A stretch of 64,000 nucleotides of DNA from Carcharhinus longimanus (Eukaryota). Position 1 is the first letter of the stretch. The number at the start of each line of letters is the position of its first letter. Shown one piece after another: positions 10,581-56,581 of the stretch. The stretch covers positions 92,305,768 to 92,369,767 of the forward strand of contig JASCQW010000081.1 in the NCBI GenBank assembly GCA_030264375.1. The letters run 5' to 3'. Made by a program: the position numbers and the translations under genes. A model generated the notes under the pieces. The model saw nothing but the letters and a program-made list of their open reading frames with translations. It ran no database searches and was not told the DNA's origin.

Positions 10581-10607
10581 CGGCCGTTTTCTCTTTCAGT
10601 TGGTTTT
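10581..10607 (-). CDS. Micro-exon E13 (27 nt); ENQLKEKTA
   Basis: tcgcttgttacAG|aaaaccaactgaaagagaaaacggccg|GTaaga; fits the ExxLxxK consensus of the 27-nt class. Confidence 0.75.
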
Positions 10608-12280
10608 CTGTAACAAGCGATTACATTAACAATACACTTAAAATGTGGCTGGTAGATGCACAAACACACTTACTTTCAATCTCTATTGGTTGAATATAAA
10701 GCGGTTCAAACGAACAATTCTTCGTTTTCTGCCCCTCTAGATACCCTTGAAAAATGTCAGCCCTTATACTTGCAATGGTCACCAAATGCCATTCCCCGAA
10801 ATCCGCAGGATTGAAACGCAATTCTACTCCTCTCTATTCAATAGATTCGCATTTTCCTCACTCGGTATTCTGTTTTCCTTTCCTTTGGCGATCACGCTAT
10901 CGGAGGACTGTTTAACCATACCTTAGAGAACGATTACACTTTGCAGTAAGGCGAGATGTTGGACACAAAGATTTCTCTCTCCGTCGATAAGGAGTTGGAA
11001 CTGGAACTGTTCACTGTCCCTCAAGATATATCCAACTGAGCTAATCGACTTCGAGTTAACATAGAAAACAACAACATTTATTTCATTTGTTCTTTTTCCC
11101 TGTTCTCCGAAAGGCCGCAATATTTTCTAAATGAATTATTTGCAGTGGCGCCATGAGTTCAACATTAAAGGAAGGTCGCTCCAAAATGGAATATACCCAG
11201 TTCATCAGATTTTTTTTGCACACTGGAGGAATCTTAAACTCCTTGCTCAGCATGTAATACAGATTACATCAAGTACGAAAGTTATGCAGCGGAAGACAAA
11301 GCAGCAGTTTAAAGGCAGCGTTTTTCTGTTTGGCAGGAATCAGAGTACTTACCTTGTGGATTGGAGGAAAGAACACATCAGGGTTTATCGTCGCCCTACT
11401 CTACTCTTTTTCGTACTGTTTTCCTTCATGATTATTAAGCTCCAACTGGTTCGAAGGCGAATAATTTCAATATGTGTTGATGACTGAAAACTTGGAAATA
11501 TTCTGAACCGTGAGGATCGTGGTGGCCTTGCATGAGGCTTACGGAATTTATTCGAATGCACGGAAACATGACTAATGCAAAGATGTGAGAAGTTGTACTT
11601 TTAGTACGCACAAAGAGAGACAATATAAAACAAAAATTACTATTCAAAAAGAAGTGAAGAAACAATGATGTCTGTCAATACCTGCATATATACACGATAA
11701 GTGGCAGACACATTGAGGAAGTGTATGAGAACCTAGACTCACAAAGCGATAGAAAGAGTAGATATTACCGAATTTGTGGCAAACTTTTAAAAATACTTGA
11801 TCAATTTCCACCGTGAGCTTGTCCCCAGAGCTTGCGTCACACTTTAAAATATGTGAGTATCGAAACGTTTTAGTAAGATTGCAGAAAGATTTCACAAGAA
11901 TTATTTTGGAAAGAAGAGTCTTCAGTTAATTGAGCATATTCTGATAATTTGGCAGAACCAGTGTTCTTATCCTTAGAGGAAATTTCATAGACCTGTTTAA
12001 GTCACCGAGTTGTCTCGGTGTTAGAGAAAGAGAGGAAATTTTGACACCAGGAATGGACTGAAGAATCAAAGGGCATTGCATAATGATGAGTTACAAAGAA
12101 CAAGCAAAGATGTCAGGAAGCATTTTTTCCTGTACAACCATTGCTAGGGCCTGGAAAGCCCTGCTTGTGAAATTGAACCATGGCTTTCAATCAAAAACGG
12201 GATAAACAGCTGAGGTAAGTAACATTTGGGACAACGGCGAAGGTCTGGGAAACTGGGGTTCGCTCTTTCAGAGCGCTGGT

Positions 12281-12795
12281 TTTGATTTGACTTGATTTAT
12301 CATTGTCACATGAATTAACATCCAGTGAAAAGTATAATGTCTTGTGTGCTATGCAGACAAAAAATGCCGTTCATAGGGGAGGAAAGGAGATAGTGCAGAA
12401 TGTAGTGTCACAGTCACAGTCACAGAGTAGAGAAAGATCAACTTAGTGCAAAGTGAATCCATTCAGAAGTTTGAAAGCAGCAGGGAAGAATCTGTTCTTG
12501 AGTCGGTTGGGACGTGACCTCAGACTTTTGTATCATTTTCCCGAAGAAGGTGGAACAGAGAATGTCCAGGGTGCGTGGGGTCCTTTATTATGNNNNNNNN
12601 NNNNNNNNNNNNNNNNNNNNNNNNNNNNNNNNNNNNNNNNNNNNNNNNNNNNNNNNNNNNNNNNNNNNNNNNNNNNNNNNNNNNNNNNNNNNTGCGTGGG
12701 GTCCTTAATTATGCTTTGCCAAGGCAGCGGGAAATGTAGACAGAGTTAATGGGTGGGAGGCTGGTTTGCGTGATGGATTGGGCTACATTCAAGGT
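12281..12795 (-). mobile_element. Rex1/Babar-type LINE 3' end spanning a gap
   Basis: Minus-strand AQSITQTSLPPINSVYISRCLGKA, typical of the Rex/Babar RT C-terminus; (aaatc)n tail; a second short copy lies at about 25238-25370. Confidence 0.65.
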
Positions 12796-13455
12796 CTTTT
12801 GTCCACATATGGAAGGATGGCCTCCTTTCTTTCTGCGACATTCTATGATTCTATATATTTCTATTGATTGGTCGCTCATTTTCGGCTGGGGGGTTTCATG
12901 AGATCGATAACATTGTTCCAAAATATTTCTCCATAAATCTAATACATGTGGGCACCACTATATAAACAGATCCTGGCACCCATTTGCGTCAAATTTGTTC
13001 ATTCCCTTTTTAATATCTGGCACAATCGAAAAGGTTGTTGTGACTATTCGTACCGATCACAAATGATGGTAGCAAAATCCGCAGCCGCTTTTCTAAAGAA
13101 AGCGAATCCATATTCGAGGAACAAATTGGACGGAAAAAATCGGATTAAACAAGTCCTTGTCTCATCGAGGCATAGTACTTGTTTTACTCTCTGCTTATTA
13201 AAGGTTTACTGTTTGCAGTGTAGAGCAGCACGTGTGATAAGGACTTTTCAGAGGTCCCTTTTATAGTTTTTGTCGAAAGGGAATTCATATTTCTTTTGTA
13301 GGAGTTGTTTACTATAGACCAGTGATTTAAAGCTGACACTATTTTATTCACAGCAATTAACTAGTCGTGAAGGACTAGACTTCAGAGACAGCAATCTATC
13401 AAATCAACGTACGGTCCTTCGCAGTACTGGCCGAGTAGTGGCAGTTAACACGTAC

Positions 13456-13482
13456 CTAATTTTGCACGCACTTTCTCGAGGT
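13456..13482 (-). CDS. Micro-exon E12 (27 nt); xLEKVRAKL
   Basis: gtctgtttgtttccAG|acctcgagaaagtgcgtgcaaaattag|GTacgt. Confidence 0.7.
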   Translation of the reverse strand, partial: TSRKCVQN

Positions 13483-14181
13483 CTGGAAACAAACAGACGG
13501 AGTCATTTTAGTCAATGTATACATTAGAAACTTTTGATTCGCAAGGAAATTAAAGAGAATTATTACCAAACATATCACAACTATCGTCACTAACACAGAC
13601 ATTCGAGCGCTTAATATTACTCTATCGAGAACAGGATTAAAGTAGCGTGCTCAGATGCTTGGTGGTTTAACACCCTTGGGGGAATTTTGTTTATTTCAGT
13701 GTCAAATTTGGATGAGTTAAGCGATGAATTCGGCGGAAAGGTCATTTCACTCTAATATTATAAGGAAATGCAAAAGAACAGAAATCTCATATGAAAAACG
13801 CCAATACAAAATGTAAATACACAAGAGCCTTAGCAGCGGTGGAGAGAAATTTTATTTTAAACGTTCTTGAACAATAAGCCAATAATGACATTTTTCCTAT
13901 TCAATACGGCTTAAGTGACGCAAAATTGAGATCACAAAATGAAATTTGGTCCAGTTGCTTCCGTATTTGTTAATTCAAACAATGTTCAAAACATTGAGCA
14001 CAATGCAATTGCGATTAGAATCGTGTGGGCACACAAACACATAGATAAATCCATTCGTTTATATACGTCCTAGTTTGCTGGTTCCAGAGATCGTGCACAC
14101 TATATTTTCAGTGAATAACTACGTGACCTTATTTTGTTTTACAGATGTTGACAAGGAATATAAGCACAATACTTATGTCAC

Positions 14182-14205
14182 CTTTTACTTGAGCAATCTT
14201 GTTAA
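14182..14205 (-). CDS. Candidate micro-exon (24 nt); xNKIAQVK
   Basis: cattttatatttAG|ttaacaagattgctcaagtaaaag|GTgaca; phase 1-1 but an off-pattern length. Confidence 0.3.
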
Positions 14206-14569
14206 CTAAATATAAAATGAATTTATTGGTCACACGCTAAATTCTGTAATTTTAAATAACAATTGAATAAACTGCTCAGAACATGCTACGATTTCAATTT
14301 AATTCAGTTGATAAACTGGAAGTAAAAATAAAAAAAGCTTGTGGATCGGTGGTCATGAAACAAACGTGGAAAACTGTAAAACCCTAACTGGTATACTAAT
14401 GTCTTATAACGAAGGAAATGTACTGCCCGTTTCTTGACCTCTATCTGACTCCAGGCCAAAAATGTGGGTGGTTCTCAACTGATCTCAGAAAAGGACCAGG
14501 AAGCCATGCAGCTCAAGAACAATTCAGAATTGGCAGTAACGATGCTATTGCCAGTGATTCTCACTTCCC

Positions 14570-16100
14570 ATGAGACTCTGACAGGCTTGAAAATTAACAA
14601 ATCGCCAGGCCCAACGGATTGCGTTCCAGGCTTCCGTGGGTGGTAAGGCACGATAATGCAGGGGCTCCGCACAAAATTTTATTTCCAGTCTGGCCACGGG
14701 AGAAGTTCCAGAGTATTGGAGGACGGCAGATGTGTTCCACTTTTCAAGAAGGGTGCTGCAGATATACCAGGAAATTACAGATGAGTGTGTTTCACCGTGT
14801 GGTAGGGATTCTATTGGAGAAAATTTTTAGGGAGAGAATTGAACTCCGCTGGGAAGGTATGGGTTAATTAGATGTAGTCAGCTTGGCTTGGTTAGCAGAA
14901 GTTTATGCCTGTCAATTTCGATAGAATTTTTCGAAAACGAGATCTAGTGTGTGGATGATGGAAGTGCAGCTGATGCAGTTTATTTGGTTTTTAGCAAAAC
15001 TTTCGACAATGACCCACTTGGGAGACTGGTTGAAAATGTTAAATGCAGGGAAACGTGGCAAGATGGGCCAGATCTGGCTTAGTATTAGGACAGGAAAAGT
15101 GGTTTTAGAAGCCTGTTTGAGTGATTGGAGGCAAGTAACCAGTGGCGTAGGAAAATGCCGGGAGCATTACTGTGTTGCACACATATAAATTTTAAAGATG
15201 AAAAACTGGGGAGAAGGGAATGAAAAGCAAGTTTGCAGATGACACCAAAATGGCACGGTGGTTTATAGTGCAGATGAATTTCTTAGGTTACAGGAAAATG
15301 TAGATGATTGGTCAGAATGGCATAGCAGTCGCAGATGGCATTTAACATTGATTCGTGCGAAGTGTTACCCTCGAAAGAAGTAACAACACAAAGAGTATTT
15401 AACGAATGGCAGGACACTGAAGCGCAAAGGAACAGATGGATCTTGTCGTACTATTCAAGGATGACTGAAGGCGGCATAACACGTCAATATAATTTTTAAG
15501 AAGGCATATGGGACATTTGCTTTTATCGCTCGTGACATCGAGTATACAGAAAAGAGATAATATTGAAACTATACAGAAATTTGGTTAGGCCACAGCTGGA
15601 GTACTGTGTACAATTCTGGGCATCTCACTATCGGAATAATGGGATTGCAGTAGAGGGGATGCAGTGGACATTTTCCAGGATGTTGCCTGGGATGGAGCAC
15701 TTGAATTAACAGACAAGAATGGACAAGTATTGAAGTTATTTCTCTAGAGCAGAGGAGGCCGAGGGGGTCATGATTCAGGCTCACAAGATTCTGAGTGGAT
15801 GAACAAGGTGAATAGGAAGCAATTGCTCCCCTTGCTTGAGGGGTCAGTCAGGAGGGAGATAGTTTACGGGTAAGGAGCAGGAAACTCAGAGGGTTTTGGG
15901 AATCTGGAAGCACTTGCCTGGGAAGCTAGTGGGGACAGGAAAACTTACAATACTTAAAATGTATTTGGTGGGCACTTGAAACATTATAACATTAGGATAT
16001 GGGAAAAGTGCTATAAAATGAGATTACCGCGAGTTTAGCGGTAGTCATTGTCGGCGCAGACTCGATGGCTGAACGGCCTTTTGCACGGTGTACGACTCTA
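14570..16100 (+). mobile_element. Degraded CR1 LINE ORF2 (RT) plus 3' UTR
   Basis: LKINKSPGP, KFADDTK and LVRPQLEYCVQFW motifs with many frameshifts. Confidence 0.9.
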
Positions 16101-16537
16101 TGTGCAATGTGTATCAATTACTGTTCGCGACGTGTTAAGACAATACAGGTAAAATTTCGAAAGAAGACAATGGGAAAGGAATGACAGCTGGGGTGCACCC
16201 ATTCTCCACGTTTTTAAATTTGTCTTCCATTGACTTTATTGCAGTGATACCCCGACCAGTATGCAAATGTATGGCAGGTCACTTAATGTTAATTTTCTTT
16301 CCTGCTCAAGTGGAATTTCAGTCTTGATCAACATAACTGAAATGTAATTGATAAGGAATTCAGGCGAGTGCCTTCAATTGAACATTAAATTTGTCATTGT
16401 CTGCATCGCAGCAAATTACCGAGAAGACAAAACAATCGTGCACAACTATTGATGTTCCCACCCAATTCTCTATCCAGTTTCACGATAAGCTACATCATAC
16501 ATTCCAACCAATGGAGAAAATTTTAGAGGGATCCGTG

Positions 16538-16805
16538 AACAGGGACGTGGATTCGATTCCTGGCTTGGGTCACTGACTGTGTGGAATCTGCAAATTCTCC
16601 CCGTGTCTGTGTAGGTTTCCTCTGGGTGCTCCAATTTCCTCTTACATCCGAAATACGTGCTGGTTAGGTCGATTAACTATGCTAAATTCTCCGTCAGTAA
16701 CCAAGCAGGCGCTGTCGTGTGGCGACTGGGAGATTTTCACAGTAACTTCATTACAGTGTTAATTTAAGTTTATTTGTGACATTAATAGACAAACTTTAAA
16801 CTTTA
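16538..16805 (+). mobile_element. tRNA-derived SINE, 5' truncated
   Basis: ttcgattcctggcttgggtcactgactgtgtgga core; (aaacttt)n tail. Confidence 0.8.
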
Positions 16806-17459
16806 TTCACTTTACAACAGGGAGAAACCTGCTGGGTATAAACATCATTGAACGCTGTGAGCATTCTATTATAAAGGATTTGAGAAATACTAAATTCACA
16901 GAATAGGCACAAAGAAGGTAAAATTTTCTAAACCATTGCCATGCGTCAGTTAAATTCTCGTGTTCAATCATGGCTTCATGGAAATTATTACAATATGCCG
17001 AGGCCACTCAAAGAAAATTGCGATGGTGCTTAATACAATTAATTTATTGCATAGGTTTAATAGGAAATAACCGTTTTCAATGACAGGAGCGTCGAAACCA
17101 GAAACTACCGATTCAGAGTTATTGGTAAAAAACATGGTAAGTGACACGAAGATATAATAATCTATAATACGAGTTGTGATGTTGTAATTAACACTGTTTG
17201 AAAGTTTGATATCTTCAGAAATGAAATTGTAGAAGTACTTCATAGGACCCTTCAGAGGGCGATCGTGGAAGAACCAGGGAGAATGATTATTGGATTTATT
17301 AATGGAACGAACTCGTATAGGTGCAGTGCATTGAGCGGATATCTTCTATTCGGCACCATGTTCAAACTGAAACAGTTCATAAGTGTAGATGAAGCTTAGA
17401 AAGTGCAACACCGATCACCATGGCTGATCAGAAATCATCAAATTAAGTTGATACTTTAC

Positions 17460-17486
17460 TGAATTGGATTCGAAGCACTTCATTCG
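17460..17486 (-). CDS. Micro-exon E11 (27 nt); ANEVLRIQF
   Basis: tttctgttttattgcAG|cgaatgaagtgcttcgaatccaattca|GTaaag; strong acceptor, moderate donor. Confidence 0.5.
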
Positions 17487-18601
17487 CTGCAATAAAACAG
17501 AAATCGTCAATATATCGCCAAAGTAGAATATAGACACTATTGTTATTTTCAATTGCTGCATTTCCGAGCATGAAGAACAGTCACAGAGGATCAGTCGCCT
17601 TTTATCCACCACTCCAACAGTTCAGCTGTTCTTGACAGAGTCCACTCTGCATCCGAGTTGAAGCTGATTTCCACGTCAACATTTTTTCTCATATGTTGTG
17701 GAGATAGGTGCGTGATTCTGTTCATGTGCGTGTGTGCTAATGCATACAGAAACCATGGAGCAATAGGAGTGTTGTTGAGGGTGAAGGAGCGGCGGCGAGG
17801 TATGGTCTTCGCTTTATCAAATACTTAATTTAAAAATGGATTGGCCATTTTAACAGAGAGTATTAGACAGGCAATTGGTGAGGTCCTAGATAATCTTAAT
17901 TTAACTCGTCACATTTACCTTCCCATTGAATGCAATGGATATCAGTCGTAGTTGGAGAAGTCATGTATTGGATTTTGCCATTATCAACCGGGAAAAGGAG
18001 GCCGACCGGAACCGACTTGATCCGAGGCGGTAAAGGGTCGTTAAAACCCAATTGAGAATCTTTGCCGCAAAGTTGCTAGAAATGTTCAAACTTAAAACTT
18101 CCTTCAACCAACACGCTGCTCTCTGAATCTGTCTTCACGTTTTTTCATCAAAAAAATCAGAACATGATTTGATACCTCAAACAAATTGCCACATCCAGGA
18201 GCATAATCTGGTGACATATACATCATGTTTCCAGCAACAGCTCATTTCTTCCACCATCGCGTGTTCTCGTTATGACCACCGTAAAACACTCCCATGCGTT
18301 ATCTATCATACCTCAGAAAATTGCAAAGTAATTTGGGAGGTACACTCATTCAGACAATCATGAAGTAACTAATCCCTTGTCTCTTGCACATAGCAAGCAG
18401 GTGTGAGGGATTTAGATGATTGGTTTCTGGCTGCAGAGGGACCAGCCACTGAACTTACATCGTTGGTCTAATTCAATTAATGCTGAATTAAATTGTCACA
18501 ATGTGAGATTGTGACAATTAATACTAATTTATCTGCTTTCCGTGGAATAGATTTGCAAAGCACGATATAGATTATATCATTCAGAGTGGTAAACATCTTA
18601 C

Positions 18602-18643
18602 CGGATTGTTGTATTGGAAGATTTCTCCGAGGCTGTATGATTT
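18602..18643 (-). CDS. Micro-exon E10 (42 nt); EIIQPRRNLPIQQS
   Basis: caatattcacAG|aaatcatacagcctcggagaaatcttccaatacaacaatccg|GTaaga; begins EI like the 36-nt class. Confidence 0.6.
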
Positions 18644-20082
18644 CTGTGAATATTGTATTGTTTGGTATTCTTTACATATATAAAGTATGAGACGCTTTTG
18701 CTTAGCAACTAGTAACCAGTTGAAATGTTCTACTCAAATGCAATGCTTCCGGCGGTTAAATGAATAGGTATTCGAATAAAAAGTCTTATTCTGCATGATA
18801 CATCTTAACTTTAAATTGTCTGCTCCTCTTTTCCGAAAATAGATATCTCTAATATTGCTCGTATCTCACTATAGTAATTGGGGTTCAGTTGTCTTGTCAT
18901 TCCCAAGCTATAAATTGACTGAAAGTAGTTTGTCACTATTTTGCGGCAGATAGCAAGTGTATCCATATTTGGGTTAATAATATAAACAATAATCATCACA
19001 TTGAGTCAAAGGGTCTCATAAAATTGTGGTTTGTGCATTAGAAACTGAACAGGTTTATATGCGCTCCACATGTTGTAATTAGTTATAATAATATATAATA
19101 ATAATGTTATAATCATATTGGTATCAGCATTCAGTATTCCTTCAGGGATATTTGAGCGAGGGTCAAGTCCCACATTTCGATGGAATCGTATCATAAAAGA
19201 GCTATTGTGACAAATATCATTCCTCAATGAGCATCATAAAATAACGATTGTCCAGCTACCTCTGTTTGTGTGAATTTCCTGTGTGTTAATTGGATGTCTC
19301 TTTTCATACTGCTCAAAAACCCCCCTGCAAATTGTTTTTGATCGTCCACTAGTCATGCATTGGTACAAATATTTCATTCTTTCTCTCAGCTCAATCAGGA
19401 TAACAATTGCACCAATTAACATTTCGCACCGACTTAAACTTGGGACAATTGTTCAGCCTAATTAATAAACTAACCCAAGCCTCCATATCTATTGGAAATA
19501 TATGAACATTTCCACCTATCCAGCATTGGAGTGCACCATTTAGATTACAAGCAAGAATAAAAAAGTGACTGACTTTGTGAAAATAATTATTTAATTGGTC
19601 TTTGCATAATGATGATTGGATAAGCTACTTTGCTGGCAGAAATTCTTCCCGAGGTACTATTTTCAGAAATGAAATTGCTACGCAAAGCCAATATAATTTG
19701 GGCCTGGGAAGTATTCACTTGCATGCAGAAACCATTCTCCCAAATTATTTGTTCATATATTTTCACGAATACTGATGCACATTTTGTATAGCAATTGTTA
19801 GTGATCATCAATAAGAAAATATTTGTAAACAGATTCAGAAATGGCGTCAAAGTTAAAACATAGAATCAACTTAATTGCAGTGATGTCAACAAGCATTGGC
19901 AAAAGTTCACCGAGTGAATCATCAGTGATAAATTTCGACATGACAGGAAAATCACCTAATTTCTTCTAACACTTTGGTGCATCAGGTGCCGATCAAAAAT
20001 CAATCATTTTATGGAAACAAACATAAAAAGGAGAAAATAATATGATTAAAAATATAAATTGTAGCATGTGGCGAGAATTTAC

Positions 20083-20109
20083 CTTTCTCTTTTTGCTTCA
20101 GGCTTTCTT
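20083..20109 (-). CDS. Micro-exon E9 (27 nt); QESLKQKEK
   Basis: ttcatttgcccaattAG|aagaaagcctgaagcaaaaagagaaag|GTaaat. Confidence 0.8.
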
Positions 20110-20354
20110 CTAATTGGGCAAATGAATTGTGAAATAAGGCAAAATGCATTGGGTAGTTTACAATGCATTGTAATGGCCATCTACACCTTTATTTCCACTG
20201 AAGTATCTGGATAAAGTGTCCAATGAATTGTTATGTTAAACAAATGCCCTGGCTTATCCAGAATCTTTTGACATTGCGAAAGCTTGGAAATAATTTCTCT
20301 ATCAAGAAGTATATGAAGATAATATCTCACTTAACCCAAATAGGTTTTACTCAC

Positions 20355-20390
20355 GTGTCTTTTGCAAAGTTTGCTTCATGATACTAAGTT
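20355..20390 (-). CDS. Micro-exon E8 (36 nt); ELSIMKQTLQKT
   Basis: tttttgtttttcAG|aacttagtatcatgaagcaaactttgcaaaagacac|GTgagt. Confidence 0.85.
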
Positions 20391-20854
20391 CTGAAAAACA
20401 AAAATGTCTTATATAAAATCTAAAATTTTATTTTGCGTCCACTTCTTTATAATAGGAGATCCAAAAATATAATTTACTTTAGCGACAATATAGCACGTCT
20501 CTAACTTTGCAGAATAATTTTTTTTCCACTGCACAGCAGTGTTAGAGAATAAAACTACATATATTGAGGATTCAATTTCTCTCTAAATGTGGTGAAACAT
20601 CTTGCATTAGAGGAAACATTTGTTTGGCTAAGAGAAATGTGCATGTGGTTTAAGAAACACCTTAGAATACTAAAAACATCATTTTAGAAGTGCGAAAACA
20701 GACACATCTGTTCAGATGAAGAGATTAACTGATTTTAATGATCCAATAAGAGATCAATTTGTTACTTTCCCCTTCGGTTACAGTTCACCATGAAAGTCTT
20801 CAATACATAATAGATTACCAATTGATACACATTTTCATAAGAAAGGTAAAGAAA

Positions 20855-22240
20855 ATAATAACTAAGAACAGAAGTAGGCAATTCAGCCCATCGACCCTGC
20901 TCCACCATTCAGTACAATCGTCGCCTATCTCACCTCGGGATCAACTCCACTCTCCTGACTGTTCCCCATAACGTTCAACCCAATACTTATTGAATACCTA
21001 TCACCTCCTCAAATTTACTCACTGTCCCACCGTATACCGCTCTTTGAGGTAGTGAATAGTAATGATTCATGACACTTGAGAAATGTTGTTTCTCCTTATC
21101 TATACTTGAAATGTGCAACCCCTTATCGTAAAACGATGCCATCTTGTTCCAGATTGGCTAACCAGAAGAAGCATCGCGCTATTCCAACCTGTTCTACGCT
21201 TTTTATCATCCTGTACGTCTCAATTAGACTTCCTCACTCCCTTGTAAACTCCGCTAAGCATAGGTCTGAACTGCTCCAAGTCCATTAGTAATACAAAACA
21301 CCCATCTTTAGAATCAATCTGGTGAACGCCCTATGGACTGCCTCTCATGCCATTGCATGCTTCCTGAAATAACAGGACCAAAATCGTACATTGCCCTCCA
21401 GGAGGTTTGTTTCAGAAACATTTATTTTCTTTCAAACTCGCTTCCTTTACCTATAGGTGCAAAAACAGAATCTGCTTTCCTTGTTTACTGCTGTATCTGC
21501 ACACCAGTTTTCTGGGACACAGGCACGAGGACACTCAGATCTTTTCACACCAAAGCACCATAAAGTCTCTGTATATTTAGATATTAAATTGCCTTTCAAT
21601 GTATCCTACTAAATGGATAACATCACACTCCATCCTCCGTTAAGCTCACATTTTGGCCTAGCCACCTAAACTATCCATTCAGAGAATCCCTAAAATGCAG
21701 AACGAGGTCGTTCGGTGCATCGGGCCTGCGCCAATTCAACGTCTCACCCAGGCCCACGCATCCCACGCCCGCCCAATGCCCAGTACCCGTCATCCACCTC
21801 ACCTACGCAACTTAGGTACTAAGAGGTTATTTAGCAAGGGCAATCCACACAGATAGTCGCCCAAGGCCAGCCTCGAACACCGGTCCATAGCACTGTGAGG
21901 CAACAGTGCTATTCATTATGCCACCATGTGGCATTATCTATTTGTAAATTTCTTACTTCTTCACCGGATCTGAGGATCCTACCTATTTTAGTGTCATCCA
22001 CAAATGTGACTCTGTTATCTTCTATCCCTGTATCAAAGTTGCTAATATGGATTGTAAGTGGTTCGTGCCCGAAGATCAAATAATGTGGCACCTCAATGGT
22101 TACATCTTGCCAGCCAGAAAAAGTACCATTTGTCCCGAATCTCTGTTTTCTGTCAGTCAGCCAGTCTTCCATTAAATCTAATACATTGCTTCTGACTCCA
22201 TGTGATCTGATCTCGTTCATTAACCTTCTGTGTGGTACCA
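20855..22240 (-). mobile_element. Degraded CR1 LINE with nested SINE at about 21680-21925
   Basis: Minus ORF 21909-22295 contains WLTDRKQR..NGTFSGWQDVT and FVDDTKIG. Confidence 0.85.
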
Positions 22241-25727: not shown

Positions 25728-25761
25728 TAAAATATCTAAATCTTTATGCAAAGGTAGAAAC

Positions 25762-46011: not shown

Positions 46012-46681
46012 TGTTTATTTACACAGGCTCGTTCCTGGTCCCTTAACTATGAAGTAATTACTCAGCTATTAATTTAAACACCCTCCAAGCATTCCAGTTT
46101 AATGACACAAACAAAGATAGGAGTCGAGTCTTGATTCATTCAACAATCTCCCTTTATTTAACACTTTAGGTACCAACTCAAATTTAATCAGTTGCAACAC
46201 TTTTAACTCTTTTAGTGAACTTTAATTCTTAACTGAACATTAATTATTTAACTGAAAATAGATACTACTGGACAAATTGGCCAGGCCTATTCCCAATGTA
46301 AAATCTATCTTTGTAGTCTTCTCTGAAGAAGATCTTGAGGGCAACTTCTGCAAAGGCAAATTGCTACAGAGTTATCACTGGAGACAAAAGACTGCACACA
46401 CCTTTCATCTACAAATTCTTTCAATTTTCCTGAAGATTCTCCAGCCAATTGTGTATCTGAAAACTTATCACATGACTTGAACAGCCAGTAAAATTACTTA
46501 CAATTAATACCATTATGCTTGGTTCAGATGGCATGCAAAATCCATTTACTGGGCACCAGCAGGTCTATCCCAGAGTAAACAATTCCGCATATTTGATCAA
46601 CACAGGACACTTCAGGTCACACTTCCCAGACCAGGTCATGGCTCACAGCATCTTTAGGACCTGCATCTATTTTTAATAACA
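46012..46681. mobile_element. Possible solo LTR
   Basis: Bounded by TGTTTATT...AATAACA inverted termini; AATAAA on the minus strand near 46155; no TSD seen. Confidence 0.3.
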
Positions 46682-48464
46682 GATTGACCAAAATTCCAGC
46701 ATGCTAAATCCTCAGTTGCACCTGCTGTTTGAAGTCAGTATTTTGTTAAAATCATTGCTGCATTTGTTCTTTCTCCATCTACAAACTATGTCCTCTTTTG
46801 AGCAGCTGTTTTCTTTAATTGCAGTTTTTGGAAGGGAGAATCTCTTTCATTTGATTTTGCCAAGAGAGGGGAACCGGTGTTCTCTAACTACAGTTTTTCT
46901 CATAGTGGATTAGTTCCATTTATGAAGTGGATTGCGGTATTGCAGGTGCTCTGTTTAAGCTGATATTTCAGAACCTCTTCTGCCTGAACAGAATGCCAGC
47001 CCTGGAGGTGGTGCTCCTCCATGCAAGCAGTTGACACCACTCAAGGCATTGGCGTTCAGGGGTACCTTAATGAAGACGTTGTTGCAGTCACTGTCTGAAG
47101 ATGTGTGGGTCAGATTGATTGGCCATATTAGATTGCCCCTTAGTATCCTGGGATGTTTAGGTTAGAAATGGCGTAAATTTGTGGGATAGGGGGGATAAGG
47201 TGAGTTGTTGTCGGTGCAGACTCGATGGGGCTAATGGCCTCTTTCTGTATTGTAGGGTTTCTGTGATTCGATGAAATCTCTGGATAGATGTGATGAACAC
47301 ACTGCAGGGCAGGGGCCTGGAGGACTTTGTGATGGTCAAGGACGTAGCTGTACAGTTCCCAGGCACTACTCGCTGGCAGCCTCCCATTGCCAACCTGTCA
47401 AGTTGGCACTGTCAGCATTGGAAATGTTAGGGTGCGGGAGGACGAGTGCCAGGTTGGCTCTGCCAAGAGGGGCCTGAAAGCTGTGGGAGAGTTTTGGCGG
47501 CCCTATAGTGGAATGTCGCTCACTGGGGGTGGGGGGGAGAGGGGTAATGATGTTGGCTGGAAGGGGTTCAGTTCACCCAGATGTGTTATGTTTGTGTATG
47601 GGGGTCATGGTGGGGGAGTGATGAGTGTGACCCATGCCCTTAGTAATGGGGGGCGCGGTGAAGATTGTCCCTGTGTGTTGAAGGGTAGGAACATGCCCCT
47701 TGTCTGTGGGGAGGGTGGGGGGACGAGGGTGGGGGAAGGAGGGAGGAGAGTGTCCCTATCTCTGAGGAGCAGGAACTGTCAACTGTGTCTCAACCCTGAT
47801 CCTCTCAAGGCCAGTGCAAAACTCACCCCACAGAGACATCCACTGGTCATGGGGAGAGTTCTCGCTTTTTATTATTTCATCTTCATATTCTCTAGTTTTG
47901 ATCTCTCCCACTAATAGAAATATTTTGTCTATGTTCAACCTATTTTTTTCACACATTTATCTCCCATCTGTTAGTAGACTATATGTCCTCTATCTGTAAC
48001 AATTTGTTATTAACAGATGTAAACAGAAGTACAGACAAGGGTTAATGAAGGAAAGACAGGTTGGATTATTAAATACGAAATTATGTCCAAAATGATTGGA
48101 TTATTTGACAGAGAAGGTTGATTAAGGATGTTGTCAGGAACTTCAGTTATGAGGAGAATTTGGAAAGGTTAGGACTGCTCTCCCTGGAATGGAGAACTTT
48201 AAGACATGACTGAATAAAGATTTTCAAGATGATGAAAGATTTGATAAATTCGATGAAGAAAAATGATTTCCTCTGGAGGGTGGGTCAATAACCAGAGGTC
48301 AGGAATGTAAAATCATTAGAAATGATTAAAAAGATGGCAGAGATTTCCCAGTGAGATTTTCCCATTATTAAACACAATCCATTAGATCCAGGATCTCACA
48401 GCTCTATGAACTTCAACGGAAGTTGACTAATATTCCTACAGTTCTCACCGCCGCACAACATCCA

Positions 48465-48946
48465 TTTCCCTTCTCTGAGGGTCTCTGCTCTCCCACCTCG
48501 GGGTGGGGAGCAGGAGGGCCTCTACCCCGCCCCCCCTCCTCCCCAGGGGTCTCTGCTCTCCCTATCCCGGGGGACTCTCTGCTCCCCTTCCCCAGGGGTA
48601 TCTGCTCCCCTTCCTGGGGTCTCTGCTCCCTTTCCCTGGGGGTCTTTGCTCCCCTTCCCCAGGAGTCTCTGTTCCCCTTTACCTGGGATGTCTGCTTCTT
48701 TTCCCCGAGAGTCTCTGCTCTCCCCCTCCCAGGGGCACGGATCCTCTTCCTCAGGGGTCTCTGCTCCTTTTCCCCATGGGTCTCTGCTCCCCTTCCCCGA
48801 GGGTCCCTGCTCTCCACTTCCCCAGGGGTCTCTGCTCCCCTTCCCCGAGGGTCCCTGCTCTCCACTTCCCCAGGGGTCTCTGCTCCCCTTCCCCAGGGTA
48901 TCTGCTTCCCTTCCCCAAGGGTCTCTGTCCTCTCCTCCCCGGGGGT
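48465..48946. repeat. C-rich minisatellite, basic unit about 22-26 bp (ccccaggggtctctgctccccttc)
   Basis: Roughly 20 diverged units; includes a tandem pair of an approximately 48-bp higher-order unit at about 48780-48890. Confidence 0.9.
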
Positions 48947-49339
48947 CTTAACAAAGAACAAAGAACAACCCAGCACGGGAAACAGGCCCTTCGGCCCAAC
49001 GAGCCCGCGCCGCCGCATCTTCCTACACCTACCCTGCCCTGTGTGTATGTGAGTGGAACCCCTAATGTAGCCAGATTCAGTGGAGAATAGTGTCAATTTA
49101 GTACACCAATCAGCTTAAGAGCACATATAAATGCAATACGTTTTATGTTAGCGTCCTGTCTCGTCTTGTCGGGAAATCATTCCACCATATTGACTGCATT
49201 CCAAAGCCTGCAAGGATTTTGTAGAATGTTTCTAGAAGGTGGAACAGACGTGACTGATTTGGTTGCGTGGAGGAGTGCAATGGGAAGGAAAGGCCTGTGG
49301 TGGGGTTTGGAGTTCCTGCAGCTCCATCGTAAATTACAT

Positions 49340-49478
49340 TTCCATCTTTCCTTCCATCCTTCCTTCCTTCCTTCCATCCTTCCTTCCTCCCTCCCTCCCT
49401 TCCTTCCTTCCTTCCTGCCTTCCTTCCTGCTTTCATTCCTTCCTTCCTTCAGTTCTTCCTTCCATCCTTCCTTCATTC
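49340..49478. repeat. Imperfect (TTCC)n microsatellite
   Basis: Direct inspection. Confidence 0.95.
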
Positions 49479-49769
49479 AATCTTTTAGATTCTGTTAGAA
49501 ATAAAATGTGCCCTTCGATCTCTCTGTCTGTCCATCCATTCTTTATCCGACCATTCTTCCACCCATAATCTTTAAAGCAACCCACTTGTCCAATAATCTG
49601 TATGCTGATATAACAATTGAACCTGTTCTCGAGAGAAAAATGAGCAAAACGGGCAAAATAATTGCTACCACAATTAGACTTTCCATTACAGTTTGTATAA
49701 ATGACCACCGATATTCATTTCAAATGCATAACTAATTTAAAGTGCATTAAAGAAGGATGCCACTGGCAC

Positions 49770-49805
49770 CTGCTTTCTTCAGATGGTCTTTCAGTCTTCG
49801 AATCT
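49770..49805 (-). CDS. Micro-exon E3 (36 nt); EIRRLKDHLKKA
   Basis: tttatttttttcatAG|agattcgaagactgaaagaccatctgaagaaagcag|GTgcca. Confidence 0.8.
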
Positions 49806-50687
49806 CTATGAAAAAAATAAACAATTTTTCATAAACGAATCGCTGCGATTTTATTGTTTAATGTCTTTTCAGCCTTAGCATGTGATAGAAATATTGTTAG
49901 TTATGAGGAAAGTTGTACTTCTGTTTTATTCCTGCACTGCATGATTTAGAAAAGCGAGAATATTCGCACTTCTGCGGTTCAAAAATTTCCAAACGCATTA
50001 CTGAACCTGCAGATATTGCAACTTTACTTTCAGTAAGTATTCACCATAAACAGGTTTTATTTTCATTTAAGCAAGCCTTTGTCGGAATAGGATAAGTATA
50101 CCTGTATTTGCAAATTTTCAGGAAAATGGCCGACGTCAGGCCAGCACAACGTCAGATTTATTTACGAGGTAAAAGCACATTGACACGGCAATATATATCA
50201 TTATTAGAAAGATACGGATTTGGAATTTCTCTGTCAGGGTCATAGCTCTTGAATGCCTAGCTACTGAAAGAGAACGCACATCATTTAGACAAAACATTAG
50301 CCTGAACAAAATAAGAGGAAACGCCTTCGATATTACTCATTGAAATCAAATTATCGTGAGAGTATCCAAGATAGATTGAGTGTGCAATCAGTTCTAAGGC
50401 GTTATTTGTGGATGCTTAGCGAGGATAAATATCGAGCCGTGGGTTGGGTTATGGGAACAGTGTGAAGTCGAAAGTAGATAATTTGTGGAATAGGTAAATG
50501 TCGCGTGCAATAGGTCGGGCAGACGTTGTAGAAGCTTTATAATTTTCATTCCCAATTCGACTTACTAATTTAAAGGCACGTTGGATAGCCGATCTACCAT
50601 ACCTACACACAAGAATGGAGGGAAGCATATGCTGTACATCAGTTTGCCTCTTAACTATTATTAGGAAAATATTAGAATCCATTATTT

Positions 50688-51702
50688 TGAAGGGTCTTTT
50701 TTCCGGCTGGAGATTTGTGACTAGTGGTGTTTCGCAGGGCTCTGTACTGGGCCCTCTGCTGTTTTTGATATATATAAATGATTTGGAAGAAGGTGGAACA
50801 GGTATGATCAGTCAGTTTGCAGACGACACAAGGATGGCTGGACTTGCGCATAGCGATGAACATTGTCAGGGAACACATCAGGATATAGATAGGCTGGGAA
50901 ATTGGGCGGAGAAATGACAGATGGTATTTAATCCAGATAAATGCGAAGTGATGTGTTTTGGTAGAACTAATGTAGGGGGGAGCTATACAATTAATAGCAA
51001 AACCATCAAGAGTATAGAGACACAAAGGGACCTGGGTGTACAAGTCCACAGATCCTTGAAGGTGGCATCCCAGGAGGAGAAGGTGGTGAAGAAGGCATAT
51101 GACATGCTTGCCTTTATAGGACGGGGCATAGAGTATAAAAATTGGCGTCTGATGTTACAGCTTATAGAACATTTACGCCACATTTGGAGTACTGCGTCCA
51201 GTTCTGGTCGCCACACTAACAGAAGGACGTGGAGGCTTTGGAGGGAGTACAGAAAAGGTTTACCAGAATGTTGCCTGGTATGGAGGGTCTTAGATATGAG
51301 GAGAGATTGGGTAAACAGGGGTTGTTCTCCTTGGAAAGACGGAGAATGAGGGAAGATCTAATAGAGGTGTATAAAATTATGAAGGGCATAGTTAGTGGGA
51401 AGCTTTTTCCCAGGTCGGAGGTGACGAACACGAGGGGTCACAGGTTCAAGGTGAGGGGGGCGAGGTTTAACTCAGATATCAGAGTATTTTACACAGAGGG
51501 TGGTGGGAGACTGGAATGCACTGCCAAGCAGGGTGGTGGCGGCAGACACGCTGGGATCATTTAAGACTTCTCTGGATAATCACATGAACATACTGGGAAT
51601 GGAGGGATAAAAACGAATGGACCAATGAGCGGCGCAAGCTTGGAGGGCCGAAGGGCCTGTTTCCTGTGCTGTATTGTTCTTCGTTCTTGTTCTTTGTTCT
51701 TT
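50688..51702 (+). mobile_element. CR1 LINE, 5' truncated, moderately young
   Basis: SGVSQGSVLGPLLFLIYINDL, FADDTR, FNPDKCEVM and EGVQKRFTRMLPG; (ttctttg)n tail. Confidence 0.95.
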
Positions 51703-53984
51703 GAAACAGAAACAGAATATTTGTAGAACCTCAATAAAATAAGCCAGTATTTGGCAGCTTTTTAAAAGTCCTTTGGGTAACATAACAAGCAGGATGCATT
51801 AAATGGGCTCAATCAAATAAATGCACTTGCATTTCCAAAGTATGCTGTGCGTGGTGCCACTTTGAACGTTACTGTAAAATGTACGACCTCCTGATATTTG
51901 AATTGATACATGGCCATCAGCAGAAGATTGGAAAATACACTTTCCAGTTTTGCAAGTTGTGATTACTGGATGGAAATAGGAATCAATGGTAAACCTCAGC
52001 TATGTGCATACTATATTATTCAATTAGACGAAAATGTTAGCCGTATTGCAGCAAAATTTGCTGACGAATCTATCAGTGAGGAGAAGTGAAATTACATATG
52101 TACAATATATATGTATACACACGCAGTTTTATATAGATAGATAGATCAAAACGTGACGCAACATGATGCACACGCTAACATAAAGCAAAGAACAAACAAA
52201 TATGAATTACATACAATAGGACCGCAGAATGTGACAGATCCGAGTGGCCGTGTACATAACTCACAAAAATTTATATTTTGGGTACAGCAAGTAAGTAGAA
52301 AGGAAATTGAATGTCAGTGTTTATTGTAACGAAGGTTGAGAATAGACATGTGCACTTCTTCATATATGAAGGTTATGGGGAGCAATCACTTTGCACAGAG
52401 GCTTGTTTCTTTTTGTAAAACTATTTCACAGAGATCAGTAGAAACCTGCTCATTGGATAGCGTCAAGGTTCAGTCACAGATATTTTGACATACGCAGGAG
52501 TCAAAGATTATAGAGGGCAGGAAAGAATGTGGACTAAGTGACACCATCAGATCCACAATCATCTTATGATTGGATGTGCAATCTTGATGAACAGCCTTTG
52601 CTCTATTTGTTATGATTTTGCACAAGATTTAATCACAAATCTAAAGGAAACCGATTACATAATGGAAGCAACTACAAGTTCAGGAAGTGAAAATTATTAA
52701 GCAAGAAACGACTTGCGATTGTTCTTATACTTAATGGAACTCATTGTTTTGAGATTTCACAAGTGAAGGCCGAAACGTCAATTAATTTTAGGGACGTCAA
52801 AATTGTAATAAACATTGAGAAAATGTGGAAGGAGTCACATTACGTTTGGTCCATACATTACCCTTGCAATTGTATGAAGGCGGTTTCGATATAATGATTT
52901 GCAATTAAATAAAATGAGCTTTCCACAAGAACTTGAAATAAATACACAACTGCAAAACGTATAGCCAAAAAAGATAAATCCATAAATATGACACACACAA
53001 TCTGAGTTATTAATGAGGGGAGAATGATTTCTTTTCTCGTGTTATTGCCAAAAAAGATGGAACTGGGCATGTAAAGGACAACTTGATGAAGAGCATGATC
53101 TTTCCATGATTAACTAGCTTATTTAATCTAAACAGAAGGAATTTCAAGGAGATACTCAAGGTGGTGTTGGATCGACCAAACCACATGACGTTTATTCAAT
53201 TTTCCCCGATGAATGTCATTGAATCACATCGGACGCACAACATATCAACTGACCATATTTCCCAATTTATCCATGTGAACTTCTATGCTCCACTCACATC
53301 TTTTTCCATATTTCCTCATCTAATTCTATGATACTGAATTTCCATTCCTTGTTCTATCACAAATATTTCTATCTTCCCTTTGAAGACATTCGAACTATTC
53401 GCTTCAAATACTCCGTGATGTTACGAATAGTGTATAACTTGAATTTCAGTTTATATTTATACTTGCGTGTTAACACAATTGAAACATGTTTCTAGTTCCA
53501 GTTAGGTATGTTTGTGTTGTGCAAGTGATCTTATATTTGTTTAGAAATCTTTGCAATATTTTTGTGCCTTGCAATGTGTTATTTTTCTAAGTTAATAATA
53601 ATTTTATTGTTTGTGTTAAAGGTATGCTGGCATACACATGGCACTGTACTGAGCAAATTAGAGCCGCGCATTAAAGAAAAACAAAGTTAACATTTACCAA
53701 GCGAGAGTTACTCCGGGATCTGACTGTTCAGTTCTAACACCAGTTGGGATCGTATGACTGTGGTAACGATTTCACAATCTCCCAACAACAGTTAAATTCC
53801 AGATAAGGTTTCTTGATGACATCATATTAACGATTGCCTGTACGTTCTTCTTCACAAGTGGAAACTTTCTATTTAGACCCATTGTCGAAACCTTTTACTG
53901 AATTACAGATCTGCGGTCTGTCACCTCAGTTTAAGAACGCCATTCTGACCATCCTTTGCCGATATGCATACCGACGGATGTTAG

Positions 53985-54958
53985 CTGACGTTTCTGCTGG
54001 AGTCCCAGGGTAGTGTCCTCGGCCCAATCATCTTCAAATAATTCATGAATGACCTTCCCTCCGTCATAATGTCAGAAGTGTGAATGCTTGGCGACGATTT
54101 CACATTGTTGAGAACCATTTCTGACTCCTCAGATGTTGAAGTAGTCCATGTTCAATTGCAACAATATTTGGTCAATATACAGGCTTGTGCTGACAAGTGG
54201 CAAGTAGCATTCACGCTACACAAATGCCTGGCATTGTCCACAGCAATAGGAAACGCTCTAGTCACCGCCCCTTGACATGCAATGGTGCTACCATCACTGA
54301 ATGTCCGACTGTCAACATCCTTGTGCTTACTGTTGACTAGAAACTAAAATAAACCCGCATAAACACATCGACTACAAGAGCAGGTGACAGGCAAGGAAAA
54401 CTGCAGCGAGTAAACGAATTCCTGACTCCCCAAAGCCGGTTCACCATCTACAAGGCACAAGTCAGGAGTGATTTGGAATACTCCCCAGTTGCCCGGATCG
54501 TTCAACTCCAGCAACACTCAGGAAGCTTAAGGACAAAGCAGCCTGCTTCATTGGAACCACATCCACAAACATCCTCGTCGTCTATCACCAACGCTGAGTA
54601 GCAGCTTAGCGTATTATCTGCAAGATGCGCTATAACAGTTCACCAAAGATGCTTAGACAGCACCTTCCAAACCTATGACCATTTCCATGTCGAATACCAA
54701 GGGCAACAGACGCACGGGAACAAGACTGCCTCTTTGCCACTTAGAAGTCCAACCAGTAAATATATTGCCATTCGTTTACAGTCGCTGGGTCAACATTCTG
54801 AACGTCCTCCCTAATGTCACCGTGGGTCAACCAGCAGCACGTGCACTGTAGCGTTTGAAGAATGCAGCTCATTTCCACCTTCTCAAGGGCAACAAGAGAG
54901 GAGCGTTACATGCTGGCCACCCATCGACGCCTATGTTCCATGATTGAATTAAAAAAAA
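53985..54958 (+). mobile_element. CR1-clade LINE RT fragment and 3' tail (second family)
   Basis: ggagtcccagggtagtgtcctcggccca (GVPQGSVLGP-like), MNDLP, TIYKAQVRS; A-rich end. Confidence 0.85.
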
Positions 54959-55016
54959 GTCTATAGACCTAACATACTATATGTGGGAACTTGTGCCCGA
55001 AAAATTCAAAGGTCGT

Positions 55017-56017
55017 GAATCTCACATCCGCTGCGCTAATGTTTTTAGCGGGCGGGGAAAATCAGGCGTCGACAAATTTGCGGTGTTACGGTGAGTATCC
55101 GCGCAGGAAATCAGCAAGGAGGCAGGGTCAGCATTCAAATAGCATTTAGCATATTATTTAAATCATATTAAATGCTAGCATCTCCCACCCTGCAGGGATG
55201 TTTCACTCTAGTGAATTTACACTAGCTTCCCGCTGACCGGAAACAGGCGGGCAGACTTCGCTGAAGTGAAGAGGGGCAACCTGGCGCTCCAGGGGGTCGG
55301 GTGACAGGGAATGGTGTCCCCGGGGCATAGGTACCCTGGCAGTGCCATCCTTAACACTCTGGTGCAGTCCAATGGGTAAAATTTCAATGCCCAGCGGAAG
55401 GACACCAAGTATGGGACAGTGCCAAGGAGACTTTGCCTATTGGGGGAGAGGCTTAAGGAGTGGTGCCTATGCGGCTTAGGGAGCGGTGCCTATGGGGGTT
55501 CTCGCTGCCACTCTGCAGTCCTGATACATCGGGGAAGGAGATAGGCCAGGGATCGGGTCGCGCTGGCGTTGGNNNNNNNNNNNNNNNNNNNNNNNNNNNN
55601 NNNNNNNNNNNNNNNNNNNNNNNNNNNNNNNNNNNNNNNNNNNNNNNNNNNNNNNNNNNNNNNNNNNNNNNNGGGGGTTAGTATCCGCCTGCTGGGGGTC
55701 AGAACTTCGGGGAATGAGGAGCCTGGACTGTGGGGAAAAGGGTTGGGTCTGCAGGTGGGTTGGTTAAATGTCGAAGGTGAATGGGGGGGGTGGTAGTTGG
55801 AGAGAAGGGGGCAGGCCATGAATGGCGGGCCAATGATCAGATTGTGGTGGGAGGCGGGCGGGGTGCGGGACGGCAGAGATGGCTGCATTGCGGAGGCCGT
55901 GCAACTGGCCAGCAATCGATCAGGCCAGCAAAGAGGGAAATTGTCAGTGCCCCGTCCTCTGAAATCCAATGGTGTTCACCCTCCTGGCCTCTTCCGTGCA
56001 CAGAAAGTGGGAGATTC
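55017..56017. mobile_element. GC-rich non-autonomous DNA-transposon-like element spanning a gap
   Basis: Termini gaatctcaca / tgggagattc are imperfect inverted repeats; sharp GC contrast with the flanks. Confidence 0.45.
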
Positions 56018-56255
56018 TTGTCTGAACTCTCATTGATGAAACCACCGTGAATTACTTCGACGCGAATTCGACATTAGAAGGTTATTGGGAGTCACTTCCT
56101 ATAAATTAGAGCCTTAAGCGTTGCTTGTCAGAGAACAAAATTAGTAATGAATGGCAAGGGTGCTACACAAATCAAACCACATTGACGGATTGCTTATACT
56201 ACGAGTATAAAACTTTATATTTCAAAAATAAAGCATTTTCTGAATAAGCATTTAC

Positions 56256-56282
56256 CTTTGTCTTTTAAAATGAGAGCTTTGT
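56256..56282 (-). CDS. Micro-exon E2 (27 nt); DKALILKDK
   Basis: ttttttttgacAG|acaaagctctcattttaaaagacaaag|GTaaat. Confidence 0.8.
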
Positions 56283-56545
56283 CTGTCAAAAAAAAATCAG
56301 TTTATACAGCACATCAAAGAACATAATGCTGCATTTTGTGTTCACAGCTATATTTTGATGCAAATGTGATGAATAAACCGAATAGGTCAAATAATTGACC
56401 TGTGCTGTATCTTTGTGCTAAACTGTATAGTTGATCAGATAAACTAAGCACCTAAATTACTTTTGCGAGCATGTGGAATTTCTTATATTGCGTTCTCGTG
56501 CTCCTTTCATACATTAAAAAGAAGAATACTTTATTTCTTTTTCAC

Positions 56546-56581
56546 CTTTCTCAAAGAGCATTGATTCAACCCTGTTCATTC
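56546..56581 (-). CDS. Micro-exon E1 (36 nt, phase 1-1) of unnamed coiled-coil gene; xMNRVESMLFEK
   Basis: Minus strand ttctttgttttcAG|gaatgaacagggttgaatcaatgctctttgagaaag|GTgaaa; open in phase 1; hydrophobic residues at positions 2, 5 and 9 as in the other 36-nt exons. Confidence 0.75.

Follow-up and report, generated by a model that had tools for sequence, protein, structure and literature searches.

A predicted giant shark gene of phase-1 micro-exons encoding a coiled-coil rod with a terminal B30.2 domain

Enterophilins of the guinea pig are soluble proteins in which extended heptad repeats are followed by a C-terminal B30.2 domain, and enterophilin-1 is reported to bind sorting nexin 1. 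Butyrophilins are described as having a short heptad region and then a B30.2 domain (PMC8813856). In chicken BG genes, a very long coiled-coil tail of variable length is encoded by many tiny exons in tandem copies of the same orientation, and this tail also occurs as a soluble "zipper protein" (PMC5938342, PMC8813856). The BG literature raises the question of what function long heptad tails have and whether they are partnered by orphan B30.2 proteins (PMC8813856), and the shark gene described below bears on it.

The DNA analyzed here is a 64,000-nucleotide stretch of Carcharhinus longimanus (the window; coordinates outside it are given on its scale, with negative values to the left of base 1). 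Short segments on its minus strand are, from their sequence, very likely internal exons of a shark gene of about 410 kb, and we hold with high confidence that this gene and its architecture, a micro-exon-encoded rod with a B30.2 end, are real. Like butyrophilin genes, it has short phase-1 heptad exons (122 modelled, 18 to 42 nt) before a C-terminal B30.2 exon and is linked to the MHC; unlike them, it has at least 122 heptad exons instead of a few, its B30.2 domain falls in a separate clade, and leader, IgV, IgC, and transmembrane (TM) exons were not found in it. It shares with chicken BG a long tail encoded in a large number of tiny heptad exons, and its second copy has no working B30.2 domain. 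However, BG genes encode an IgV domain and a TM segment, have about 27 to 37 exons of mostly 21 nt, and lack B30.2, whereas the shark rod gene has roughly four times as many exons, mostly of 27, 36, or 24 nt, a B30.2 domain, and no membrane anchor. The likeness to enterophilins, soluble heptads plus B30.2, is one of predicted architecture alone; enterophilins are mammalian and much shorter, and an independent origin is likely. TRIM-B30.2 proteins (TRIM39, TRIM69, "zinc-binding protein A33") also combine a coiled coil with B30.2 and are encoded in the MHC class I region, but in the shark gene RING and B-box were not found, the exon design differs, and the B30.2 domain lies outside the sampled TRIM group. 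Schistosome micro-exon genes likewise place coding sequence in very short exons between long introns; they are unrelated, secreted, and variable, and the analogy is in gene design alone.

The sequence-only reading of the window had proposed a hidden minus-strand gene of phase-1 micro-exons encoding a coiled coil, elasmobranch in origin and of butyrophilin/BG-like design, and the present analysis supports this. All 13 of its peptides were located on the minus strand where it had placed them, each with AG before, GT after, the given length, and an open phase-1 frame. The list was correct but incomplete, three window exons having been overlooked; over all 16, the order is 36, 27, 36, 27, 36, 36, 36, 27, 36, 27, 42, 27, 24, 27, 27, and 24 nt. 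Equally frequent matches on the plus strand or in shuffled sequence, which the reading had named as the finding that would count against it, were sought with a chance model of splice sites, composition, and length, trained on 53 exons outside the window and read at a score of ≥10. The minus strand of the window gave 14 matches and the plus strand none, and 40 dinucleotide shuffles gave a mean of 0.225 (maximum, 1). Twelve of the 13 earlier segments were among the 14 matches.

Most window exons, all on the minus strand, both match the model and have a homolog in a tandem paralog (copy 2). These are the 36-nt exons E1 (56546..56581; homolog intact), E3 (49770..49805), E5 (41053..41088), and E8 (20355..20390), the 27-nt exons E2 (56256..56282), E4 (45409..45435), E9 (20083..20109), E11 (17460..17486), E12 (13456..13482), and E13 (10581..10607), and a previously overlooked 24-nt exon at 4374..4397. 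Two further model matches have altered copies in the paralog: the 36-nt E6 (36145..36180), whose GT donor is lost there, and the 27-nt E7 (29636..29662), whose copy is 26 nt long. Another overlooked exon, of 36 nt at 42508..42543, also matches the model; it is likely, from sequence comparison, a tandem duplicate of the 41053..41088 exon, since both pair with one paralog exon. The third overlooked exon, of 24 nt at 14182..14205, has the same peptide and AG/GT borders in the paralog. The 42-nt E10 (18602..18643) scored below 6 in the model, yet its 42-nt homolog is intact in the paralog; it contains prolines and is likely a hinge.

When 74 exons were queried against copy 2, 66 were paired, and 62 of the 66 kept AG, GT, and frame with no stop, while the expected survival of four neutral splice bases alone is about 0.19. 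Identity between the copies is 0.76 in exons and 0.66 in flanking introns, and by codon position it is 0.78/0.79/0.68. Furthermore, both copies retain the donor of a noncoding upstream exon, conserved blocks resembling a promoter, and an identical ATG context. Across 1.57 Mb of the wider cluster there were 299 minus-strand and 5 plus-strand matches, a count made with a model trained on 174 of those same exons and thus not a held-out one.

The gene is far bigger than the interval first proposed: the entire window (1..64000, minus strand) falls within it, and the window exons sit toward the 5' end of a predicted span at 92.0 to 92.4 Mb of the scaffold. Upstream, on the same strand, are a likely 5' untranslated exon ending at +95571, a likely first coding exon at +93848..+93756 (ATG at +93834) encoding an acidic 26-aa peptide, and four micro-exons between +74540 and +69035. 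The ATG exon could instead be internal, because in either copy its phase-1 frame is open starting at the acceptor. Downstream of the window are 102 micro-exons from -506 to -308851 and a terminal B30.2 exon at -313963..-314474, both on the minus strand; a PRY-SPRY exon had been proposed as something to look for in the flanks, and here it ends the gene. The 122 modelled micro-exons comprise 71 of 27 nt, 31 of 36 nt, 16 of 24 nt, two of 18 nt, and one each of 33 and 42 nt, with a median intron of 1.9 kb. This number is likely a lower bound, because about ten linker segments of the catshark protein lack confident placement, and a few modelled exons (e.g., at -180608) may be false.

The predicted product has about 1,370 aa, of which about 1,180 form a segmented rod encoded by the symmetric phase-1 micro-exons. 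Hydrophobic residues occupy positions 2, 5, and 9 of the 36-nt exons in 77%, 87%, and 77% of cases (n = 31) and position 4 of the 27-nt exons in 61% (n = 71). The heptad positions proposed from the window thus agree gene-wide; the periodicity peaks at 3.50 over the whole rod and at 3.52 in the catshark ortholog. The window part by itself peaks at about 3.0, a less clean signal than had been claimed. Alternation of 36- and 27-nt exons holds in part, a 27-nt exon following 25 of the 31 36-nt exons, while its strict form fails.

The catshark RefSeq protein XP_038671249.1 (945 aa; 63% in B30.2) contains, in the same order, 63 of the 74 downstream exons; its model starts some 65 kb farther downstream than the window. 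For 48 neighbors, a single junction residue lies in between. Among RefSeq isoforms of relatives, the differences are blocks of 9 and 6 aa, the size of 27- and 18-nt exons. The database names of the shark orthologs (TRIM39, TRIM69, "zinc-binding protein A33") are misleading. Teleost "A33" proteins were considered as family members and rejected, having an ordinary TRIM-type coiled coil and falling outside the clade; for a 55-kDa "A33-like" entry of catshark skin mucus, no tie to the shark rod-B30.2 family was made. No longer ortholog was found at E ≤ 1e-10 with catshark residues 1 to 400 as the query (7,988 candidates of 1655 to 4725 aa; a weak test), and a profile search with the N-terminal peptide matched no protein in the database, none of its 18 candidates being scored.

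The B30.2 domain of the gene is intact. Its top PDB match is BTN3A1 (E value, 2e-14), and those of TRIM21 and TRIM7 are almost as near. In a midpoint-rooted tree of 44 rows, built without the TRIM neighbor at 91.79 Mb, which the profile missed, and the broken copy 2 domain, the family forms a 15-row clade on a long branch (support, 100/100), apart from 29 BTN and TRIM rows with no resolved base. Eight of this genome's B30.2 exons group in the elasmobranch clade with support of 100/100. As the family is not united with butyrophilins in this tree, the case for a BTN ancestry is built on exon design and location. MHC class I exons lie on the same scaffold (84.5 to 88.9 Mb, about 3 Mb from the cluster), and shark BTN genes lie at 99.7 and 100.4 Mb, 7 Mb from the gene; ahead of B30.2, these have a few candidate phase-1 exons of 27 and 21 nt.

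Collectively, we consider it probable that this is a giant micro-exon gene for a cytoplasmic protein made of a coiled-coil rod and a B30.2 domain. The protein would consist of a short acidic N terminus, the rod, and a C-terminal B30.2 (PRY-SPRY) domain, the gene being, we infer, a butyrophilin-type "tail without a head"; that the product is soluble and cytoplasmic is predicted with good confidence. The rod may pair with itself or with another member of the family, which would give a dimeric tether as long as about 175 nm, the rise of a coiled coil being 0.15 nm per residue, and the B30.2 tip may bind a partner protein. By analogy with the BG-tail "zipper protein" and enterophilin, the long spacer could join that partner to the cytoskeleton or the membrane-traffic machinery, a scaffold or spacer role that we put forward tentatively, at a little under even chances. 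Skipped, duplicated, or lost exons would change the length and surface of the rod while the frame is kept, because every exon is a multiple of three and phase 1-1.

The same gene and protein might instead serve innate immunity as a sensor or decoy. The product would then resemble a TRIM protein reduced to its coiled coil and B30.2, lacking RING and B-box, and on binding a ligand from a pathogen or the host it would use partner TRIMs for signaling or dampen them; we regard this as unlikely. It draws on the closeness of the TRIM21 and TRIM7 domains, on MHC class I nearby, and on the position of the gene within a crowded SPRY cluster, next to a TRIM gene that has a RING. It also draws on the family's history, in which copies have been gained and lost and divergence has been fast (38% between neighboring B30.2 domains). 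However, the rod is about ten times as long as a TRIM coiled coil and is encoded in butyrophilin-type tiny exons. In addition, the rod exons of copy 2 have outlasted its B30.2 domain, which is broken by 7 frame-disrupting indels, and the rod therefore seems important even where the ligand domain is gone.

That persistence would also fit a single giant transcript of several units. Upstream micro-exons would then bypass the broken B30.2 exon and be joined to copy 1 by way of the ATG exon, which has an open phase 1-1 frame in either copy. Such a transcript would run over 2.2 Mb, from 94.22 to 91.99 Mb of the scaffold, with about 400 to 450 phase-1 micro-exons, more than the exons of titin (363), and a single intact B30.2 end. 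It would encode, in the shark MHC, a coiled-coil ruler of tunable length with >4,000 residues. Only one intact B30.2 domain was found between 91.99 and 94.27 Mb, at the far 3' end, and neither a first exon nor a B30.2 homolog was found in the 0.62 Mb examined of the 1.4-Mb upstream array. Against this, just that fraction of the array was covered, and a terminal exon, sought at +509 to +516 kb and not found, could be hidden by a 1.3-kb N gap there, directly after the last exon of the array. As the noncoding exon donor, promoter-like blocks, and ATG context are also kept in both copies, we think such a transcript rather improbable.

The junction -174181/-177044 of the model reads TAA, a stop, and the neighboring copy is partly broken, as might be seen if this copy were recently inactivated in this species, its exons real but the full protein no longer made. 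The TAA reflects exon skipping, a nonsense allele, or an error in this assembly; it is one lesion in 122 modelled exons, skipping the TAA exon keeps the frame, a polymorphism or assembly error is possible, and the B30.2 exon is intact, which leaves little probability for inactivation.

Less probable still is a secreted structural or mucus protein, an extracellular coiled coil with B30.2. The rod has 15 cysteines, and the skate XP_055510696 and epaulette shark XP_060706632 models start hydrophobic (best 9-residue means, 3.3 and 3.0), but these starts may be artifacts of 5'-partial gene models, and the N terminus of our model is acidic (best mean, 0.5). A leader scan that detected the leader exon in two of two shark BTN loci found no conserved candidate in the 30 kb upstream of the ATG exon; the one weak candidate is presumably, by its motif, a LINE fragment.

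The sequence-only reading had favored a receptor whose Ig and TM exons lie beyond position 64000, and this was not borne out. Of 177 open reading frames (ORFs) from +57 to +124.6 kb, the 172 compared with Pfam contained no Ig, RING, or B-box, and 57 ORFs taken from the upstream array's 5' end yielded no Ig match. When Ig domains of shark and mammals served as tblastn queries, they gave no match in 1.57 Mb of cluster DNA and matched only the BTN/V-set control loci; a RING match was found only in the downstream TRIM neighbor. The scans did detect IgV and IgC exons in two control shark butyrophilin loci and the 120-nt TM exon in two of two. Across the gene span, the TM scan gave no credible exon, its one candidate being weak, mid-array, and missing from the catshark protein. 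A genome-wide V-set search cannot exclude Ig exons, because just 150 of 928 candidates were scored, and their absence was judged from the targeted scans. The membrane receptor, for all that its tail design and B30.2 end match the butyrophilins 7 Mb off on the same scaffold, is therefore hardly tenable.

The cytoplasmic rod gene would take the butyrophilin/BG heptad-exon tail to an extreme, with at least 122 exons in one gene, freed from the membrane. It belongs to a multigene family that lies both within the shark MHC region and beyond it, for which the databases searched contain just partial models named TRIM39, A33, or butyrophilin. No paper describing the family was found in the literature searched, subscription journals and bioRxiv supplements aside. 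Since no branch deeper than the cartilaginous fish has an MHC, the family sheds light on the shuffling of BTN, BG, and TRIM modules. It also offers a natural case in which to test vertebrate splicing of long runs of 18- to 42-nt exons and micro-exon-aware annotation. Finally, ESM Atlas chordate PRY/SPRY clusters, compared by automatic names and features, include proteins of 1277, 1579, and 1802 aa with SPRY/PRY feature scores of 0.93, 0.91, and 0.76, so a long rod joined to B30.2 may not be confined to sharks.

All 13 minus-strand segments proposed by the sequence-only reading were found where it had placed them, each with AG/GT ends and an open phase-1 frame. An exon model trained on 53 exons, all from outside the window, and applied with a cut-off score of at least 10, returned 14 hits on the minus strand (12 of the proposed segments and two new exons), none on the plus strand and a mean of 0.225 (maximum, 1) in 40 shuffles. 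With a third new exon, at 14205, identified via the paralog (copy 2, a tandem upstream copy of the gene), the window total is 16 exons. The proposed alternation of 36-nt and 27-nt exons was common but not strict, 25 of the 31 36-nt exons across the gene preceding a 27-nt exon. The proposed positions of hydrophobic residues were borne out gene-wide. Periodicity in the rod, the coiled coil predicted from the micro-exons, is strongest at 3.50 residues; for the window portion by itself, however, the peak falls near 3.0. Two adjoining 36-nt exons, at 42508-42543 and 41053-41088, both pair with a single paralog exon and are interpreted as a recent exon duplication; they are possibly mutually exclusive in splicing. 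C/T-rich tandem repeats (23/48-nt unit; TTCC) occupy 48540-48948 and 49340-49478 in the intron following the 49805 exon. Recurring false 15-nt exon candidates on both strands of the window and its flanks stem from one repeat family, which presumably resembles an elasmobranch SINE.

On the window scale, where negative values lie left of base 1 and adding 92,305,767 converts to scaffold coordinates, the gene model consists of an ATG exon, 122 micro-exons (71 of 27, 31 of 36, 16 of 24, two of 18, one of 33 and one of 42 nt) and a B30.2 (PRY-SPRY) exon, encoding ~1,370 aa across 410 kb with a median intron of 1.9 kb. Micro-exons run on 3′ of the window as far as -308.9 kb, and the terminal B30.2 exon (-313963..-314474, minus strand) is intact, in phase 1 and 169 codons long (SPRY match, E 8e-10). 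BTN3A1 and TRIM21 supply its best PDB matches, in both cases through their B30.2 domains. The closest database protein, catshark XP_038671249.1 (945 aa; B30.2 identity, 63%), is a database gene model that stops short of the window exons. From -65.7 kb onward the gene model has 74 exons, and 63 of them can be placed in order along this protein (66% identical once placement is optimised), with 48 neighbours separated by exactly one residue, the spacing that phase-1 junctions demand; the 3′ part of the gene model matches the protein at 54% over 957 aligned columns. A relative in which such micro-exons appear joined to one another and to B30.2 supports the model independently. The exon anatomy, conservation and domain content of the gene are established in the sequence, and we judge the shark micro-exon B30.2 gene to be real. 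A literature search returned no description of such a family in the publications covered. Other chordate clusters also contain long PRY/SPRY proteins, so the combination of rod and B30.2 may recur beyond sharks.

On the defining features tested, the gene belongs to none of the BTN, BG and TRIM families; its product would nevertheless work like a BTN/BG cytoplasmic tail. We infer a headless butyrophilin-type tail that would reside in the cytoplasm. Its rod would dimerise into a hinged coiled coil as long as ~175 nm and, with a partner bound at the B30.2 tips, would act as a long tether, its length adjusted by gain or skipping of frame-neutral exons. The nearest functional precedents are enterophilin-1, which binds sorting nexin 1 and has an architecture like that of the predicted protein, and a soluble BG tail, a regulator of actin-myosin in the gut (PMC5938342). 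A role as immune sensor or decoy is conceivable but rather unlikely. The window occupies 92.31-92.37 Mb on a scaffold of 103 Mb (genome, 2.68 Gb), which also holds MHC class I exons (84.5-88.9 Mb), a dense SPRY cluster (85.9-102 Mb) and a RING-bearing TRIM neighbour (91.8 Mb).

Copy 2 (+123940 to +461533) has ~70 micro-exons and its own ATG exon at ~+459.6 kb. When 74 exons were queried against it, 66 were paired, 62 of which keep AG, GT, frame and open reading; among the window exons, 15 of 15 queried were paired, with intact homologs for 13. Identity is 0.78, 0.79 and 0.68 at first, second and third codon positions, the last being the level of the flanking introns (66%). The paralog B30.2 exon, in contrast, is heavily broken, with seven frame-disrupting indels, and the rod exons of copy 2 therefore appear to have remained under selection after its B30.2 broke. 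Copy 2 is possibly a B30.2-less coiled-coil protein or a read-through donor. A giant read-through transcript is an unlikely account of the locus. That the gene itself is a recently inactivated copy is improbable. The junction after the -174181 exon reads TAA in the model, and the corresponding junction is open in catshark and copy 2; the TAA may mean that the exon is skipped, that this allele is a nonsense allele or that the assembly is wrong there.

At the 5′ end, comparison of the gene with its paralog revealed a 93-nt exon at 93848-93756 (89% identical) that contains an ATG and encodes an acidic stretch of 26 residues; no copies of it beyond these two were found genome-wide. The comparison also showed a non-coding block that is conserved and has its donor at 95571. 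LINE RT fragments also occur in the 5′ region. Between +57 and +124.6 kb the minus strand has 177 ORFs of at least 58 aa; Pfam searches covered 172 of these, all but five that span locus borders, and found no Ig, RING or B-box domain. The tblastn, TM and leader scans each picked up their targets in the butyrophilin or TRIM controls and gave no credible exon in the gene. A secreted product is very improbable, and the membrane receptor proposed earlier, with Ig and TM exons beyond position 64000, is unsupported by these scans and highly improbable.

The same scaffold carries, at 99.72-99.78 and 100.45-100.46 Mb, true shark butyrophilin genes; these have leader, IgV, IgC, 120-nt TM and B30.2 exons together with a few 27/21-nt candidate exons. 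Same-strand micro-exons extend upstream of the gene to at least 94.34 Mb, the wider cluster giving 299 minus-strand and 5 plus-strand hits in 1.57 Mb scanned, which was not a held-out test. An upstream array on the minus strand (92.82-94.22 Mb; 1.4 Mb) gave 105 hits, and neither a first exon nor a B30.2, in the 620 kb scanned. This array has repeats of its own: triplets of 27-36-30 nt, similar Met/Asp/Arg-rich 27-nt exons in a run at 92.99-93.10 Mb and, at 94.12-94.19 Mb, sets of 36-18 and 36-27 nt. A further family member at 94.267-94.34 Mb, with at least 21 micro-exon candidates and an intact B30.2 at 94.27 Mb, is assigned as the ortholog of catshark XP_038672306. On a different scaffold (C119), six related B30.2 exons at 6.3-11.3 Mb each have upstream 27/36-nt micro-exon candidates (56 sense versus 3 antisense). 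In the B30.2 tree, the gene sits beside the catshark protein (support, 99/94), and eight C. longimanus domains, six named shark or ray proteins and one contig protein form one clade (100/100) apart from 29 BTN/TRIM rows. Isoforms of two relatives differ in blocks of 9 and 6 residues, the pattern expected from exon skipping. Elsewhere on the scaffold, V-set exons at 98.36 and 89.61 Mb, possibly NKp30-like, are ~42% alike and unlike BTN V domains.
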